Assembly (NCBI GenBank): GCA_964016885.1
Contig: OZ024742.1
Coordinates: forward strand, 310,248,001 to 310,312,000
Source: Eledone cirrhosa
Lineage: Eukaryota
Reading direction: 5' to 3'
Length of the DNA stretch: 64,000 bases
The notes under the pieces were generated by a model. It was not told where the DNA came from, did not search any database, and saw nothing but the letters and a program-made list of their open reading frames with translations. Made by a program: the position numbers and the translations under genes. Of this stretch, positions 16,874 to 61,930 are shown in pieces. The stretch's first letter is position 1, and each line of letters begins with the position of its first letter.

Positions 16874-17049
16874 GAGAGTATGTGTGCGCATGTGTGTTTC
16901 TGTTTCTGTAGGATGCAGCCGTTTCTATATGTTCGTTTGTAAATACTTGTTCACAGACGTTGAAGGCGGCTGTCCAAACATTTTCTTTTAAAACATAACC
17001 TGTTGCTAAGACAACAGACATCTGCTTATAAGGATTATATATATACGTA

Positions 17050-17118
<69 letters not shown>

Positions 17119-17198
17119 AGTACAGATTCAAAGTCTAAGCAATGAATTTCTGCTTTCACCGTAAGCGGACTCCCCTCTGAAACTCAACTATTTATTAT

Positions 17199-17260
<62 letters not shown>

Positions 17261-17304
17261 AAGTTAAATAAAAGTCAAATGATTAAAATTTAGCTTCGTT
17301 TATT

Positions 17305-17359
17305 ACTGCTATATATATTTCAGTGACAGCCATCTTTGGCTGTGACCTCTTCAGGCAGT
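17305..17359 (-). ncRNA. Type I hammerhead ribozyme motif (inverted copy)
   Basis: Exact reverse complement of 18061-18115. Confidence 0.8.
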
Positions 17360-18060
17360 TTGAATTAGTATGGTATAGACAAGTACATATGTTGTTTAGG
17401 TGTATGATATTGTCAATACTCTGATATGCCCAGTTCCTTGTTGGGTTGTTAATTCACTGGGGAAAGATAGAGAGTGAGAGAGAGGAAGATAGAGAGCAAA
17501 AGAGAGGAAGATTGAGTGAGAGAGAAAGAGGAGAGTGATAGAGAGGAGAGTGAGAGAGAGAAGAGAGGAGAGTGAGAGAGGAAAGAGAGGAGAGTGAGAG
17601 AAAGGGAGAAAGATAGGCGTGGGTGAGAGAAGGAGGGGCAAGTCAAAGAGAAAACATAACAGTGAAAGAGTAGCAGGAAAAGTGAGAGACAGACGACATT
17701 AAGAGAGAGATACAAACGACAGTGAGAGAGGGGGACGCGAGAGAGACAAACTAGAGAGAGAGAGAGTAACAGACGCCAGGGGAAGAGGAGGAGGAAAAAT
17801 TAGAGAAACAGACTAGCCATAGAGAGAGACGCAAGTGGGAGAGGAGGGAAATGAGAGAAAGACAGACAAGTGAGAGAGGGGGGAAAGTCAGAGAGAGACA
17901 AACCATAGTAGTAGTAGGAGGGAAAGTCAGAGGAAGAGAAACAGACGCCATCCAGTTCCCCAGTGAATTAACAACCCAACAAGGAACTGGGCATATCAGA
18001 GTATTGACAATATCATACACCTAAACAACATATGTACTTGTCTATACCATACTAATTCAA

Positions 18061-18115
18061 ACTGCCTGAAGAGGTCACAGCCAAAGATGGCTGTCACTGA
18101 AATATATATAGCAGT
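18061..18115 (+). ncRNA. Minimal type I hammerhead ribozyme motif
   Basis: ACTGC-CTGAAGA-GGTCACAGCCA aaga TGGCTGTCACT-GAAA-TATATA-TA-GCAGT: canonical core, 5-bp stem I and palindromic stem III. Confidence 0.85.
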
Positions 18116-18254
18116 AATAAACGAAGCTAAATTTTAATCATTTGACTTTTATTTAACTTTATTTTACACTACTCCGGAGTAACCAAACCAACCTGCGCAC
18201 TTCGTCGAGTGCTCCAGCCCGCATACTGAGGTGTTGGTATAAAACCAACATAAA

Positions 18255-18294
<40 letters not shown>

Positions 18295-20046
18295 AATAGG
18301 GAGTGCATATGGCCAAGACATTATAAAAAAACAACGGTGGGACGGACAGTTCCATCTCCTCAGTCAACCTCTGGAAATCACTACGGTTTCGGTAAATTAA
18401 TGTCGATGCAATTCATTCCAATGCACATTGGAACACAACAAAACAAACAGAGACAAGTTATGTCTTTAGACAAATTACACAAATATAGAATATGCAAGGG
18501 TTTAGCCAAAGCGAAAAAATACAGAATAGAGAGAAATAGTAAAACAGAAGAGAATAAAGACTGTAGACCAACGTGCAGACAAAGAAGGACACCGAGGCGT
18601 ATAAAAGGTAAGAAGGGAGAACAGAGGAAAACAGGGCGGGCATTGTGATGTCTATTATATGATATACATATATATAAGCTGTTAAAATTTTATGATATAA
18701 AAGCATATATTACAAATACTGAAAAATAGAATAGAAGTTTCCATGAGTGTCGAAACCTTTAACTTAAGTCGGATCATCCCTTTGTCAATTAACACTTGCA
18801 GACGTTTTACTAGAAAAGCATACTCGATAAACTGGATAAACATATGCCTGTAATCACATTATGATCGTAAGTGTGTTAGATAGTTGCCGGCATGAAACTA
18901 CTGACATATATCATTCTGAGGATTATATTACTTTAACTAGATTTATATAAAACTCACTGAAAACAGCTGATGATTGAGGTATGAATTAGAAATACGGTAA
19001 TAAAAGGGTTAAGTAATCATATTGATGGCCTCATCACAGTCCTGGCGGACAGAATGGAGATGGCGTTTCACCGGAGGATTGTAAGGGAGATGGGCTGGAA
19101 AGTATGTTTGCAGCTACTGAAACTGTAGTAAAACAGGGCTGGCACAATACTGTCTACCATAGTGCAATATCACACAGAAAATTCCTCTACTGATGCAAAC
19201 ATGAGAATATGAATCATAATTAACTGTAATATAAGGCTTTATTATTTATAATTTAACCAAATATATATACATTTACAGATACGATCAGGTGTGATCATGG
19301 CAAATGGCTTGAACTTAGACTGGATTTTAACACTGAAACAATTACATCGTGGAAGAAGATTCAGTTATTCAGTTTAGCCATTTCAGAATATACACTTCTT
19401 CTTCTTCTTCTTCTTCTCCAACAATAACCATAACTACAACAACAACAACAATAACAACAACAACAAAAGCAAAAACAACAGTAAGAAATATCAAAAAGCA
19501 CATCGGCTTGATACAAAATGCGATATATTGGAACACGCAGGTTTATAATACCTCAGGCATGGATATTTTTCCTATCATATCTGTATATACTTATTTACTC
19601 TTCTACACAGATACTTATTTACGTTTCTACTCAGATATGATTTCGCTGATACGGTACTGGGTTTAAAACCTTATACAAACGGCAGCGTAATAGGATCGAA
19701 TGACAGCGAATAGATATTTTTTCTTCTTTAAACTTTTTACACACACAAACATGTGAAGTAAATCATACATACTCTTATTCTCATACATGAATCATAAGCA
19801 AATTATCTGTAAAGCAAACGAAAGCAAACAGACGCAAACCCGCACGCACCAACTACTGCATACATAAATACTTTTAGTAAATATCATTTAATATATTCGC
19901 AGTTATCGTTATCAGCGATTTATAGACGAACATATCTAAAGTATATATATATATATATATATATATATGTTTTGGGAAATAAATGCATCCATACATCCAT
20001 TACTCCATGCATGCATACATATCTACATACACACACATACATACAA

Positions 20047-25330: not shown

Positions 25331-25520
25331 TGGTGGATTGGCAGTATCTGTAGAGAGTCGGACGCCATGCTTTGCAGCAAAGAGTTACGGCCCTTTATGA
25401 TCTGAGTTCAAATCCCGCCGAGGTTAACTTTGCTTTTCATCCTTATGGGGTCGATAAAATAAAGTACCAGTAATACCCTGCTATAATTGCTGGCCTTGTG
25501 CCAAAAGTAGAAACAATTAT
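25331..25520 (+). mobile_element. SINE family 1 copy (plus strand)
   Basis: tggcagtatctgtag A-box-like, gagttcaaatccc B-box, Meta-type core, tail agtagaaacaattat. Confidence 0.85.
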
Positions 25521-26048: not shown

Positions 26049-26918
26049 ATTGTTTTTGTTTATGCCACGAAACTACGTAGTCGAGGAATTTAGGAACAGT
26101 TTAGGTATGATACATTTTATTACTAATTATATCTAAATGTTTCTTCTCTCTTCATAATGTATTTTTAACTCTGATACTGGTTTAGTCTAGTTCAAACTGA
26201 ATTGGTCTGTCCCAGTCATTCATTGAGCAACATCGGTGAAGTTGGCACCCTTAACTCACAGTTGGGTGCGGATGCATTCATGTATATATGTGTGTGTCCG
26301 CATGTATCTGTGTGTTTCTAAATATATTAATAACTCCCTCTGGTCGAGCAATCTTTGAAGTGTGGGGACAACTGGAAAGCTTCCATTACTCATACTTCTC
26401 GCCTTCTTCACTACCTCTTCTGCGGCCTCGATATGAATACCCCCTCCGCCTCCGTGGTATTTTCTTCGTGGTTATAGGAGGCTTAGCTCTGTTTCTCGAC
26501 CGTTATATCGCGTGACTATCTCCCCCTCCGCCTTTTGGGATTCTTTCTCACGTCGTGTAGACGCGTTCTTGAGACTAGTAAAATGAGGTATCCTCTTGAT
26601 AAGTCGGCAGACCTCGCAAGGACTCTATATCTTTGATATATTGTTTTTGTTTATGCCACGAAACTACGTAGTCGAGGAATTTAGGAACAGTTTAGGTATG
26701 ATACATTTTATTACTAATTATATCTAAATGTTTCTTCTCTCTTCATAATGTATTTTTAACTCTGATACTGGTTCAGTCTAGTTCAAACTGAATTGGTCTG
26801 TCCCAGTCATTCATTGAGCAACATCGGTGAAGTTGGCACCCTTAACTCACAGTTGGGTGCGGATGCATTCATGTATATATGTGTGTGTCCGCATGTATCT
26901 GTGTGTTTCTAAATATAT
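26049..26918 (+). mobile_element. Partial-tandem HHR element, family B copy 1 (591-bp unit)
   Basis: Direct repeats 26049-26327 and 26640-26918, with (TA)n on both sides. Confidence 0.85.
26591..26678 (+). ncRNA. Type I hammerhead ribozyme motif, U3-A8 core variant
   Basis: TCCTC-TTGATAA-GTCGGCA[loop]TGCCAC-GAAA-CTACGTAG-TC-GAGGA. Confidence 0.8.
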
Positions 26919-27182: not shown

Positions 27183-27525
27183 CTATATATTTTAACACGT
27201 CGACAATAAATGGCTCTTTCTCCTACGACTGAAACATTTACATTGGCTGGGAGGTTTCTGTAAGACATCCACATAATATCTTTCTATAATCTTTCTATAA
27301 TTATATAAGAAATTTATTCTTTACGTTAATATGTGTGTGTGCATGCATATATACATATACAGATATATGCATATACACATATATACATACACATGTGTAT
27401 CAGTGTTTATATTTACGTTGACACCGCTTAGCAACTGGTACAGTCTTGTTCACCCTTGTCGTAGTTAAGAATTGACAGTCAAAATATTGACATTTTCGCC
27501 AGCTAGGTAGATAGGCACAAAGGGA

Positions 27526-27710
27526 ATAATTGTTTCTATTTTTGGCACAAGGCCAGCAATTACTCAGCGCATTACTGGTACTTTATTTTATCGACACCGA
27601 AAGGATGAAAGGCAACGTTAACCTCGGCGGGATTTGAACTCAGAATGGTAAGGGCCGTAACTCTATGCATCAAAGCATGGCGTCCGACCCTCTACCGATA
27701 CTGCCAATCC
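27526..27710 (-). mobile_element. SINE family 1 copy
   Basis: Matches the consensus. Confidence 0.85.
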
Positions 27711-28377
27711 AAGGGAAATAATGTGTCTTGCGAAGCACCACCTTCCCTAAGAATTGAACTCATGACCTTACGATCGCGAGCTGTACATCCTACCCATCAA
27801 GTCAAGCGCCTTCAAACTCACCCAAACGCGTGCTCACACACGTACATATATATGATCGCATGATCTTGTAATTCCTGAAGCAGCTGTAAGGGTGCCACAT
27901 ACGACATACGACGTTTCTAGAGCATGTTTAAACCTGGCATCCCTCTACAGCAGCAGATTTCTTCCTGAGAAGGATATAAGTGAGAATGAGACGTAGGGGG
28001 AAGAATCGATCCCAGCACTAGATTGGTACTTTTTTTAATTCACCTCGAAAGGCCTATAAAAGGCAAAGTTGACCTCGGTGGGATTTCAACTCACATTTGA
28101 ACTCGTAACGAATGCCACAACGTAATCTATCCGACGTCCAAACGACTCTGTCAATTCGCCGGCTTAGTCATATATATATAGTCTTCGTTGGTGAGACAAC
28201 GAATCATGGGAGAATTCAATGCATGAGGAGATGCAGAGTAGGTTTAGAGAGAGGCATGAAACCGACCGCTTGGCGTCGCGGTCTGGTTCATCTCTCTCAC
28301 TCTCTATCTTATATATATATATATATATATATATATCTATATATATCTATATATAAATATATATATGTATATATATA

Positions 28378-29057: not shown

Positions 29058-29064
<7 letters not shown>

Positions 29065-29620
29065 AAGTTAAATAAAAGTCAAATAATTAAAATTTAGCTT
29101 CGTTTATTACTGCTATATATATTTCAGTGACAGCCATCTTTAGCTGTGACCTCTTCAGGCAGTTTGAATTAGTATGGTATAGACAAGTACATATGTTGTT
29201 GAGGTGTATAATATTGTCAATACTCTGATATGCCCAGTTCCTTGTTGGGTTGTTATTTCACTGAGGAACTGGAATCATATGATTCCAGTTCCTCAGTGAA
29301 ATCATATGATTCCAGTTCCTCAGTGAAATAACAATCCAACAAGGAACTGGGCATATCAGAGTATTGACAATATTATACACCTCAACAACATATGTACTTG
29401 TATATACCATACTAATTCAAACTGCCCGAAGAGGTCACAGCCAAAAATGGCTGTCACTGAAATATATATAGCAGTAATAAACGAAGCTAAATTTTAATCA
29501 TTTGACTTTTAATTAACTTTATTTTACACTACTCCGGAGTAACCAAACCAACCTGCGCACTTCGTCGAGTGCTCCAGCCTGCATACTGAGGTGTTGGTAT
29601 ACAACCAACATAAACTCAAA
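29058..29620 (+). mobile_element. Family A copy 2 (fold-back, no spacer)
   Basis: Near-identical to 17254-18257, with the same left boundary and the same tail. Palindromic centre with a 27-bp duplication. Confidence 0.85.
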
Positions 29621-43748: not shown

Positions 43749-43817
43749 ATTTAGGAGCAGTTTAGGTATGATACATTTTATTACTAATTATATCTAAATG
43801 TTTCTTCTCTCTTCATA

Positions 43818-43848
<31 letters not shown>

Positions 43849-44014: not shown

Positions 44015-45105
<1,091 letters not shown>

Positions 45106-45249: not shown

Positions 45250-46140
45250 ATTTTATATATTGAAGTTAATTTGTTAATAAATTCCTTTCTGATATTTATT
45301 GGCTAGTGATTAGGTTTAAATCATATTGTACTTTGTTCAGAAATTAATGCAGGATTTTATATGTTAAATTTAAAACAAAATGATACAGAATTTTGTTGCT
45401 CAATTCGTTCATCATCTGGAGCATTGGTGGGGGATATGTGACCAAGAGTTGTCGTGCAAGAGGACTGACATTTTCGATTGACCAATACGTTTTGTTGTGA
45501 TTGTTTCGCCGGAATTAAGAAAGCTGTAGTTGATTAATCCAGTTGCGGACCACCAAACAGTCATCATATTACTCCTTTGGTACAAATTCGACTTTGGGAA
45601 GTGTTTAGGAGTTTCATGTCGGCCCATTATTATGCTGAATGTTTCATCGCACGTTATAATTCGATAAAAATGGGTCGTTTTTGTTGGGTAATTAGTCTGG
45701 TTTTCGTTTAAATCATGTGGCTTTTATACAAGCTCTTAACCAGTTGTGTGAAGATTTGCGTCCAACAAAGCCTTCAATTTCTCGTCGTCAATAGCAGAAG
45801 GATGTCTGCAAAATTCCTTATTTTCAAAAGTTGATTCACCACGACGGAATGTTTGAAACTAGCGTCAAACTGGGCTCCCAAAACTTCATTGATCTATCAA
45901 GCCGTTTATGCTACACTGCAGCCGAGTTTAAACCCATAGAAATATAGTTGTCAAAAATCCTCTTTTAACATCTTAACTCCAAATATCTGAAAAGTGACAA
46001 AAATGCAAGTTATAATTAAAATGGATTAAATAGAAGGAGCATAAAATAAGCGTAAAAATGATACATAAATTTACACACCTTGTGTGAGATTTTCTTCTTT
46101 AAATAAAATACAACTGGCAATCATTTTCTCAACAATCTAA
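45250..46140 (-). pseudogene. Decayed mariner transposase
   Basis: ETPKHFPKSNLYQRSNMMTVWWSATGLINYSFLNSGETIT...LLHDN matches the mariner DDD-domain motifs (K.MVTVWW..G.I.Y.FL..GETI, LLHDNA.PH). Confidence 0.85.
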
Positions 46141-47752: not shown

Positions 47753-48126
<374 letters not shown>

Positions 48127-50732: not shown

Positions 50733-50969
50733 ATATATATATACACACAAATATATAAATATATATATATGTGTGTGTTTGGATATATATATGCAAAAAG
50801 TAAACGGAAACTTCAAAGCAAACGACACAGAACAATCAAGTAATATATTAGTTTTACGCTTCGTATAGTAGGAAGGGAGTCTATTACTTTTCGGACACTA
50901 GTCTATCATCAGTTGAAATATAAAAATAGAGAGTGAGAAGAGATAGGAAAAGCACATATGTGAGACAAA

Positions 50970-51071
<102 letters not shown>

Positions 51072-52451: not shown

Positions 52452-52746
52452 AGTTAAAGAAAGAAGAGTAACATGGTTGGCTGTACAATAAGAGCTATAT
52501 TTAAAGTACTGACAATTGTTTCGTTGATCTGGTGTGTTTTCTATATAAGTCTTGCCTCGAGTGAATGATTTTCATATCTATGTACTCTGATGTGTTGACC
52601 AGTGGTAGACAATGTATTGGAGATCGATTGACGCAATCTCAAGCGATTAGCGAACTCTAAACACACCTGATCAACGAAACAATTGTCAGTACTTTAAATA
52701 AAACCATTATTCTACAGCCAACCATGTTACTCTTCTTTCTTTAACT
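52452..52746 (+). mobile_element. Family D-related inverted-arm element
   Basis: Arms about 52452-52540 and 52660-52746. Contains the U9 HHR at 52582-52692. Confidence 0.75.
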
Positions 52747-53791: not shown

Positions 53792-54225
53792 TGGCTGTCA
53801 ACTCGTTTTCGGGTACGGCCACTACTTTATATCCATGTAGGAGAACCCCTACCGATGCGCTGAACGAGTGTGACTTTTTAGTCCAGCCAGCGACTTGAAA
53901 ACTCTGGCACAAACACTACACTTGTGACAATTATTGACAGTGTACATGGTACCATGTGACGACAAGTGCAGAGAGATCTCCAGATACAAAGCAATGCCTG
54001 TGCCGTGAAGCTTTTATAGTGAGCAAAGGCACTGCACAAAGCCAGTCCCACTCTCTTAACCAAGATGATATTTACCAAAAAGAAGAACAAGTCAACATCA
54101 TTGGATACCATCAGGGTTGCAGGTGTTATATCAGAGCTTTCCTTCTCCTAGAATTCTGCCTTGACAAAGTCTAAGGGGTCATCTCTCCCGGTGATTTTAT
54201 ACGTATATGTATATATGTTATTTTA

Positions 54226-54288
<63 letters not shown>

Positions 54289-55307
54289 ACATGACTGTTA
54301 AAGAAACAGGAACATCACCAACACCACCTTCATTATGACTACAACCCTCGGCCACGTCTCTCACAATCGCTAGCTCTTGCACGACTTTTCCGAAAGGCTA
54401 GACGCTGACAGCATGTAACCCAGCACAAAACAGTTGCTTCAGGGGTGGTTATTTTCACAGGAAATACCTATTACGTAATGAAAGATGTCGGCCAACTCTC
54501 GGTGACCATTACACACTGAATACTTCTGCAAAATCAATTCTTCTTCTTCTTCTTCTTCTTCTTCTTCTTCTTCTTCTTCTTCTTCTTCTTCTTTCTTTCT
54601 CTCTTTCTCTCTTTCATTCTTTCTTTCTTTCTTTCTTTCTTTCTTTATTCATTTTTTTTCTTTTTTTTTTCGGCAGTTCTTTAATTTTATTTAATCGATT
54701 ATTGTAAATACCTCCATTGGTCAAGAGAGCCTGAAACGGTCAATTCACAATTGGTTTTGTATATAGCAACCATAGAGGTCCCTGTTTGTTATCTTTTCTT
54801 TATGATATAGTATGTAGCAAATACGTAGGTCAATGGACAGCATCGTACAGGTCACCATGGTACCATATATAGGTCACAAAGACGCCACTGTTTGCTACCC
54901 TGCTAATGGTGTTGAGTTGGGTGCATGGTTAAGTCACCTATGAATTGGTTCAGTCCATTTAGCTGTTGGTAGGTAACGCAGAAGATAGATGTATTACTGT
55001 AGAATTTTGTACGAGTAAGGCCACTTATCTCAGACGAATACTTCGACCTCATACTCACATTGAAAGGAATATATGCAAGTTTCTTTTTCCTCAAAATACT
55101 GTTATCATAAAATAAAATTTCCTAGCATGTAAAATAAAATTTCCTTGCAAAATTTGAGTGTATCTTTCACAGCAGATTCGTAAATAGAAGTGTAGTAGTC
55201 TTTAATATAAAAATGGGTATATCTAACGTTTTATGTCGCTTAAGGACTCAAACCATTATGTGAGAAATGAATTTAATTTAGCAGATTATATTTTAAAGAA
55301 GGTATTT

Positions 55308-55839
55308 ACTAATAATTGTTTCTACTTTTGACACAAGGCCAGCAATTATCCCAGTGTATTACTGGTACTTTATTTTATCGACCCCGTATGGATGAAAGGC
55401 AAAGTTAATTTCGGTGGGATTTGAACTCAGTGCGTAAAGGGACGTAACTCTGTGCTGCAAAGCATAGCATCCGACCCTCTACCGATACTGCCAATCCAAC
55501 GCTCTTATTAATAATTATTTCTACTTTTGGCACAAGGCCAGCAATTACCCAGTACATTACTGGTATTTTATTTTATCAACCCCGTAAGGATGAAAGGCAA
55601 AGTTAGCCTCGGCGGCATTTGACCCTCTACCGATACTGCCAATTCACCACCCTTTACTAATAATTGTTTCTACTTTTGGCACAAGGCCAGCAATTATCCA
55701 GTACATTACTGGTACTTTATTTCTCGACCCCGTACGGATGAAAGGTAAAGTTGACCTCGGCGGGATTTGAACTCAGAATGACAAGGGCCGTAACTCTATG
55801 CGTCAAAGCATGGCGTCCGACCGATACTGCCAATCCACT
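55308..55839 (-). mobile_element. Three head-to-tail SINE family 1 copies
   Basis: Three consecutive units, the middle one internally deleted. Confidence 0.85.
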
Positions 55840-59813: not shown

Positions 59814-59994
59814 AATAATTGTTTCTACTTTTTGGCACAAGGCCAGCAATTATCCCAGTACATAACTGGTGCTTTATTTTATCGACCCCGTAAGGATGAA
59901 AGCTCGGCGGGAATTGAACTCAGATCGTAAAGGGACGTAACTATGCTGGAAAGCATAATCCAACCCTCTACCGATACTGCCAATTCACCGCCCA
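59814..59994 (-). mobile_element. SINE family 1 copy
   Basis: Matches the consensus. Flanked by cccataaaataat-like direct repeats. Confidence 0.85.
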
Positions 59995-61247: not shown

Positions 61248-61747
61248 ACTTCTAACATTAGTTAGAATCAGTCCTATGAGATGACACGTAAATTCTACCA
61301 TGGCTGGATTTGAAATGAAAATGTAAAAACACATTACTGCAGAATAATTAATCCGGTGGTGGAGACATTACAACACTCATTAATGCTTTAAAAAAAGGTT
61401 TTAAGAAAGTAAGAAAGCTGCAGTAATTATAGAAGAGAGAAAATGAGATGTTATACCATTCAATCCTCTTTAAAAACTTTAGCCTGGAAATTGAAACCGA
61501 AATGGGTAATTTTAGTAGAAACATAAACGTAATGACTTAAGATAGACATCTAAATAACGTCATTGATTCATTTTGCCAAAAAAATAAAAATGTTGCTCTA
61601 AGCAATGCTTCAGAACCTGTGATATGGGTTCAGCCCTACACGATACCTCATAACATATACGACAACTAGAAAAGCCTATGCCGATACTTACATTCGCACA
61701 AACATAAAATCACGTCATCTATTTATATACAAGAACAATAATTGACA

Positions 61748-61930
61748 ATAGTTGTTTCTACTCTTGGCACAAGGCCATAAATTACCAGTGCATTACTGGT
61801 ACTTTATTTTTTATCGACCCCGTAAGGATGAAAGGCAAAGTTAACCTCGGCGGGATTTGAACTCAGAATGGCAAGGGCCGTAACTCTATGCGTCAAAGCA
61901 TGGCGTCCGACCCTCTACCGATACTGCCAA
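61748..61930 (-). mobile_element. SINE family 1 copy
   Basis: Matches the consensus. Confidence 0.85.

Follow-up and report, generated by a model that had tools for sequence, protein, structure and literature searches.

Within the window analysed here (the whole 64-kb stretch of DNA), positions 17254–18257 hold two identical sequence arms in opposite orientation around a purine-rich spacer, and each arm contains a hammerhead ribozyme (HHR) motif. The question raised by this locus, hereafter copy A, is to what kind of element it belongs and how its two arms, of which just one carries a tail, came to face outward into (TA)n microsatellites. Very probably, copy A is a non-coding insertion of the pseudo-LTR (pLTR) of a very high-copy Penelope-like element (PLE), produced by one retrotransposition event at a (TA)n target with RT and GIY-YIG provided from elsewhere.

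Anatomy and family of the insertion

The left arm (17254–17464, minus strand) and the right arm (17956–18166) form a 211-bp inverted repeat with 0 mismatches, which is maximal under exact extension, and the 491 bp between them are 84% purine (A219 G193 C40 T39), confirming what the earlier note had described as perfect arms around a GA-rich spacer. Family homology on the right side begins at 17951, 5 bp before the perfect arm, and the non-family spacer is therefore 17465–17950, a GA-rich, single-copy stretch of 486 bp with degenerate internal repeats of 22 and 39 bp. The right arm represents the pLTR body (17951–18166, plus strand) and starts just 3' of the family's TCATATGA palindrome, which copy A has lost at this point; the left arm is an inverted, tail-less pLTR. 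A tail of 91 bp (18167–18257, plus strand), consisting of high-copy family sequence with predicted hairpins, continues the right arm only. The insertion is flanked by a (TA)27 target microsatellite on the left (17202–17255, the last TA being common to the arm end, which gives a 2-nt ambiguity) and a (TA)16.5 target microsatellite on the right (18258–18290), past which the reads indicate older, moderately repeated sequence (18325–18560). In pLTR plus tail, the ATG in helix II of the HHR opens a frame of only 16 codons, and comparing the 56-codon frame of the arm (17967–18134) with longer proteins gave no homologue, a result of little weight. Copy A is a short non-coding, head-to-head insertion of a Penelope-type end repeat, the middle of which is filled with one-off DNA.

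Self-comparison of the window reveals a single other locus of the family, copy B (29058–29617), which is 96–97% alike to copy A. It comprises an inverted tail-less arm (29058–29268, minus strand) with the same outer break as in copy A and a (TA)n flank, a centre (29255–29328) that includes a 48-bp perfect palindrome (29255–29302) centred on CATATG, and an arm with tail (29311–29617, plus strand) that is 96.4% alike to 17951–18257 over 307 bp. The palindromic centre stands in place of the GA spacer and contains a 27-bp direct duplication (29275–29328), whose start likewise coincides with the TCATATGA octamer. This octamer is the site of both junctions in copy B; measured against the centre of copy B, copy A lacks 10 nt on its left side and 5 nt on its right. 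The tail of about 90 bp that had been claimed for the right arm of copy A recurs here, again with 91 bp and with 2 differences. The tail-less outer break with an inverted head-to-head arm is thus seen in both loci (n = 2 complete loci examined), as is (TA)n on either side; since both ends of both copies run into (TA)n, the TSD is unreadable.

Public reads from four of the 20 listed runs (X1, X18, X4, and X7) aligned to 17465–18560; X1 is perhaps the source sample and hence no independent sample, and X18 is a reduced RAD library. The spacer core is represented in X1 by one contig (17467–17980, 0 differences), which runs unbroken across the junction of spacer and right arm and has a depth of 10.2 as opposed to 7.7 for the flank contig; no second spacer copy at 85% identity or more was seen in this run. 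Summed X1 depths at the listed arm and tail positions range from 73,000 to 295,000, and although depth is no copy number, arm and tail exceed the spacer in depth by a factor of about 10^4. This gap of four orders of magnitude identifies arm and tail as a very abundant family and places the spacer outside it. Loose ends before 17951 terminate in TCATATGA (14 contigs in X1, 587 reads in X18, and 2 contigs in X4), indicating that the family extends further 5' than copy A does and that the palindrome belongs to the family. On this 5' side, reads reach at most 30 letters past 17951, and the 27 loose letters of X4 contain no stop in the frame ending at 17969–17971. This could mark the end of an ORF, but a run of nine codons stays open by chance in about half of all cases, and the observation is given no weight here. 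The expectation that longer copies would lead across the GA spacer to an ORF found no support, since the spacer is single-copy in the reads and the family continues 5' with different letters. The arm pieces in X4 and X7 are of low depth (X7: one contig, 17951–18234, depth 2.6) and may stem from relatives or from carry-over.

Pile-ups in X18 at 18054 and 18133, and also at 17966, were considered as a possible 80-bp HHR-only subfamily and rejected, as all three lie on AATT sites. In this RAD library, 91% of the aligned reads continue into unlike sequence, and the pile-ups are best read as restriction-fragment chimeras (the enzyme being inferred); the mixed letters upstream of the palindrome consequently give no proof of a fixed 5' end. 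Linked variants at 18217–18220 and 18169 occur in about 60% of X18 reads and suggest at least two tail subfamilies. At 18220, the C of copy A is nearly private, T being found in 1179 of 1186 reads. The window further contains a SINE-like family of about 190 bp with more than 10 copies that are 75–92% alike in self-comparison, including those at 25332–25520, 27525–27711, 34919–35110, 55305–55838, 59814–59993, and 61747–61930. The common SINE and the density of microsatellites would suit an octopod genome.

The PLE assignment draws on the inverted, 5'-truncated pLTR in head-to-head arrangement, the tail at one end only, the type I HHR motif and the (TA)n target. Given the geometry in both loci and the published precedents, the earlier reading as a Penelope inverted pseudo-LTR finds good support. 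Counting against it, RT or GIY-YIG Pfam matches number 0 in 150 of the 156 candidate frames of the window, the 91-nt tail has 2–3 times the usual PLE length, and pLTR plus tail offer no more than the 16-codon frame. As no RT/GIY-YIG ORF is tied to the family, PLE membership rests on structure, and with no such ORF at the locus, copy A does not qualify as an autonomous PLE and is classed only among PLE-type non-coding remnants. Comparison of the arm motifs with metagenome and viral collections gave 3 and 6 loci, respectively, all of them chance matches of 18–23 bases. Taken as a single locus, copy A is an ordinary, dead Penelope-type remnant. Other coding traces in the window are a fragment of a Mariner-type transposase (45415–45723, minus strand; Pfam PF01359, E 2.7e-11), and a single C2H2 zinc-finger match under the curated cut-off (53852–54013, minus strand; E 1e-4). 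A 142-aa frame at 37175–37603 (minus strand), which has no Pfam match, is presumably akin to the restriction-like endonuclease at the C-terminus of R2/R4-type non-LTR elements.

The hammerhead motifs

The type I HHR motif lies at 18061–18115 on the plus strand of the right arm and, as its mirror, at 17305–17359 on the minus strand of the left arm. Cleavage is predicted after A18110 (H17), exactly where the earlier note had placed it, and 3' of 17310 on the minus strand. Helix I comprises 5 bp (18061–18065/18111–18115) and leads into the core strand CUGAAGA (18066–18072); helix II (18073–18098) consists of 10 pairs with one C-C mismatch and a 4-nt loop and is followed by GAAA, and helix III is formed by the palindromic AUAUAUAU. 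The core positions C3-U4-G5-A6-N7-G8-A9, G12-A13-A14, A15.1-U16.1, and H17 are intact in both arms of copy A and in the left arm of copy B, and the right arm of copy B carries the core change U4>C. The motif shares its long helix II, short helix I and palindromic helix III with PLE minimal HHRs. The description of each arm as holding a canonical minimal HHR holds as far as the type I motif and the complete core are concerned, but "canonical" does not apply: the place of the G10.1-C11.1 pair, which is conserved in PLE minimal HHRs according to the accessible part of PMC4209133, is taken by G·U, or by G-C with an extra U before G12 in another register. The same portion of this source presents a palindromic helix III as general in PLE HHRs, and a special link of the UA palindrome to the (TA)n target, as previously drawn, is not supported.

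A strict HHR descriptor finds three matches in the 64-kb window, all from this family, whereas 100 simulated windows average 0.01. Folding of the 71-nt HHR region yields z = -2.8, and the active fold of the monomer is predicted to be 3.4 kcal/mol less stable than the minimum-energy fold. None of the Rfam HHR families matches at gathering score across the window, and a search at E up to 10 over 17000–18500 returned simple-repeat matches and no HHR family. Dimers of PLE HHRs were reportedly treated by Lünse et al., where the G·U variant may also be described.

The two HHRs of copy A lie about 710 bp apart on opposite strands; no transcript can therefore contain two sense copies, and no dimer can form in cis, and formation of helix III requires a second sense-strand copy. 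In a read-through RNA of copy A, 55 of 55 HHR bases are predicted to be paired with the other arm. This burial in a duplex, together with the opposite strands, makes self-cleavage at copy A unlikely, and judged by these predictions the HHRs are most likely pLTR passengers that would be silent at this locus. As far as the accessible sections of PMC4209133 report, PLE minimal HHRs cleave poorly and only as dimers, and HHR cleavage was dispensable for insertion in vitro (PMC11167929).

Within the 27 loose letters of X4, directly 5' of the palindrome, 7 letters in a row complement the 3' flank of helix I (18119–18125), and the next 9 complement its 5' flank (18054–18062). This pairing pattern, which was picked after sighting, arises 13 times in 3,000,000 random 19-mers. 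The upstream strand is taken from 2 X4 contigs that stand under another organism label, and 12 of its letters are echoed in X18. In the full family RNA, helix I may accordingly be clamped in a three-way junction by this upstream strand, which is missing from copy A.

Another family at 30331–30620 (minus strand, core at 30469) contains a textbook minimal HHR between (TA)n runs, with CUGAUGA, an unpaired base, a G-C closed helix II and an ACGU palindrome; a 67%-alike copy of this family lies at 50783–51032. Inverted or fold-back families are also present at 52452–52746, 31039–31216, 44035–44415, 32703–32939, 47814–48038, and 29849–30231. Most of them adjoin (TA)n, and some pair a short inverted arm with a longer arm that has a tail; the descriptor finds a complete HHR in none of these six regions. 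The inverted or fold-back layout seems to be general in this genome. Finally, the copies at 26049–26918 and 42998–43823 are 97–99% alike and contain partial-tandem 279-bp direct repeats, with an inverted piece in the second. This family, in which no HHR was detected, resembles a young PLE partial tandem.

Origin of the head-to-head doublet

Both arms of copy A carry alleles that are rare in the family, namely C at 17960, where 680 of 733 X18 reads have T, and T at 17968, where 702 of 765 have A. One template for both arms is therefore indicated. The arms differ at 0/211 positions in copy A and at 7/211 in copy B, and A and B arms differ from each other at 6–9/211; given this divergence between A and B arms, the chance of identical A arms is about 2e-3 to 2e-4. 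The identity fits the recent insertion proposed in the earlier note, but homogenization of the arms would have the same effect. What any account of the origin has to accommodate is a doublet made from a single template, with a tailed and a tail-less arm facing outward into (TA)n, single-copy filler in copy A and junctions that cluster at the short self-complementary TCATATGA palindrome. In addition, 16 X1 contigs of a variant with its loose end behind 18148 show a T-rich run and TATATA at the tail-less break.

Our tentative preference, held with somewhat less than even confidence, is a mechanism with two primers. A PLE RT/endonuclease supplied in trans would nick the AT-rich target on both strands, and the 3' ends so exposed would each prime reverse transcription on RNA of the same source locus. 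With one cDNA begun at the outer site (about 18257, where the tail ends) and its counterpart at the inner site (18166), a tailed arm and a tail-less one would result, both pointing outward. Annealing of the two cDNAs at the self-complementary TCATATGA would be the usual outcome and yield a head-to-head palindrome like that of copy B; the arms of copy A would have halted before the palindrome centre, and the gap would have been closed with the 486 bp of unrelated GA-rich DNA. In vitro, a PLE nicks and extends both strands and starts RT at two sites bounding the tail, and a dimer is predicted (PMC11167929); a single PLE has been reconstituted so far (PMC11167929). The mechanism behind the inverted repeats and tails of PLEs is called an open question in the available portion of PMC8557442.

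A rival that shares the PLE origin is possible, if rather unlikely in our estimate: a cDNA could have folded back and primed itself at the palindrome, creating a B-like doublet, the centre of which later broke in copy A, capturing GA-rich DNA and losing 15 nt. Perfect palindromes are unstable, and the rearranged centres in both complete loci (the spacer of copy A and the 27-bp duplication of copy B) are what unstable palindromes predict. Furthermore, palindromic inverted junctions have been explained in print by self-priming, and not by two primers (PMC3846280). On the other hand, an 8-bp palindrome would make a very weak intramolecular hairpin, yet a usable intermolecular duplex, and fold-back alone gives no account of an inverted arm that has its end at the inner RT start site and borders directly on (TA)n.

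It is improbable that the spacer was acquired by 5' transduction, that is, as host DNA upstream of a donor pLTR that was co-transcribed and copied with the tailed arm. The X1 spacer contig is indeed unbranched into the right arm and broken at 17467, 2 bp inside the left junction, and it is deeper than the flank contig. However, GA-rich simple repeats, in which 17497 C>A is a common variant, may equally have caused the break through branching, the depth is far below double, and no divergent donor contig aligned. A derivation as monomeric offspring of a non-LTR retrozyme (an ORF-less HHR repeat with small circular RNAs) that was mobilized by a PLE is to be doubted to the same degree. A unit of at least 330 nt with low GC, no ORF start, very high depth and long-range pairing around the HHR would suit it, and retrozymes have been described as PLE derivatives that are non-autonomous and include many monomers (10.64898/2026.07.22.740005, accessible part). 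Head-to-tail arrays, however, occur in neither of the two loci, the joints listed, which leave out 18247–18299, include none between a 3' end and a start, and the HHR is like the PLE minimal forms and unlike the canonical retrozyme form.

Two independent insertions on either side of a pre-existing (TA)n–GA-rich–(TA)n stretch are very improbable: the spacer is single-copy and (TA)n often adjoins (GA)n in the window, but no TA remnant is left at either inner junction, rare alleles are common to both arms, and copy B is the same doublet with no host DNA in between. Long perfect inverted repeats, TA flanks and high copy number had also left room for a MITE or foldback DNA transposon with 211-bp TIRs and a TA target site, the symmetric-ended alternative named in the earlier note, but the repeats do not form the termini, since the conserved, high-copy 91 bp lie beyond the right arm, the interior is unique in copy A and absent in copy B, and the arms hold an HHR motif; with a conserved tail beyond the repeat and an interior that is unique, this reading is in effect excluded.

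Returning to the two-primer mechanism, its extension to the whole family is doubtful as a complete picture: the family would be an ORF-less, self-standing PLE parasite with tens of thousands of copies, whose two-primer doublets anneal via the 8-bp palindrome and capture DNA if annealing fails, and whose G·U HHR is clamped by a 5' strand. If this were true, the choice between the two-primer and self-priming models could be read from the doublets across the genome. The family, with its two sharp 3' ends, palindrome hotspot and common-template arms, outweighs the locus in interest, and junction counts from one assembly would allow rival PLE models to be tested. A G·U-closed and possibly clamped hammerhead would moreover add a variant overlooked by Rfam models.

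Comparison with known systems

The closest counterparts in layout are the EN+ Penelope elements Pen2a, Pen2, Pen1, and Pen3a of Adineta vaga, whose pLTRs of 181–218 bp carry a 31-bp tail on one arm and enclose host spacers (PMC3846280). They share with the present family a pLTR of about 200 bp in inverted head-to-head arrangement, the tail on one arm, a palindrome at the inverted junction (as in copy B) and a single-copy captured spacer between the pLTRs. In contrast to them, neither locus here has an ORF, the tail measures 91 nt as opposed to 31, the TSD is hidden in (TA)n and the family is very high-copy. Tails of 30–40 bp, a (TA)n bias and hidden TSDs belong to the general PLE layout as given in the accessible part of PMC8557442. 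Poseidon PAc from Anolis carolinensis likewise has an AT-rich target and an HHR that lies upstream of two alternative 3' ends delimiting the tail (PMC11167929). Described pLTRs carry the ORF start (PMC11167929, PMC3846280), as does that of PAc, whose tail is 30–40 nt long, whereas here 16 codons and 91 nt are found.

Metazoan PLEs contain dual minimal HHRs on opposite strands, 100–700 bp apart, and these resemble the present motifs in the long helix II, the 5-bp helix I and the small palindromic helix III that requires a dimer (PMC4209133, as far as accessible). Compared with these, the motifs described here have G·U in place of G10.1-C11.1, a helix II of 10 pairs plus a mismatch and possibly a clamping strand. 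Metazoan non-LTR retrozymes are similarly ORF-less, 300–400 nt long and PLE-related and have a type I HHR (PMC7229834; 10.64898/2026.07.22.740005; parts of both). They are defined by head-to-tail arrays in the available portions of these two sources and of PMC6765202, whereas the present family forms head-to-head doublets with tail asymmetry. For Octopus vulgaris, 31 recently active Penelope-like families have been reported, and hammerheads go unmentioned in the accessible part of that study (PMC13282606).

A description of this family was not found in the literature searched, a search that Repbase, Dfam, and the supplements of PMC4209133 lie outside. Its layout is already known in other animals, and copy A is a fresh example of it; the differences worth noting are modest and consist of the 91-nt tail, the G·U pair, the junction hotspot at the 8-bp palindrome and the possible clamp.
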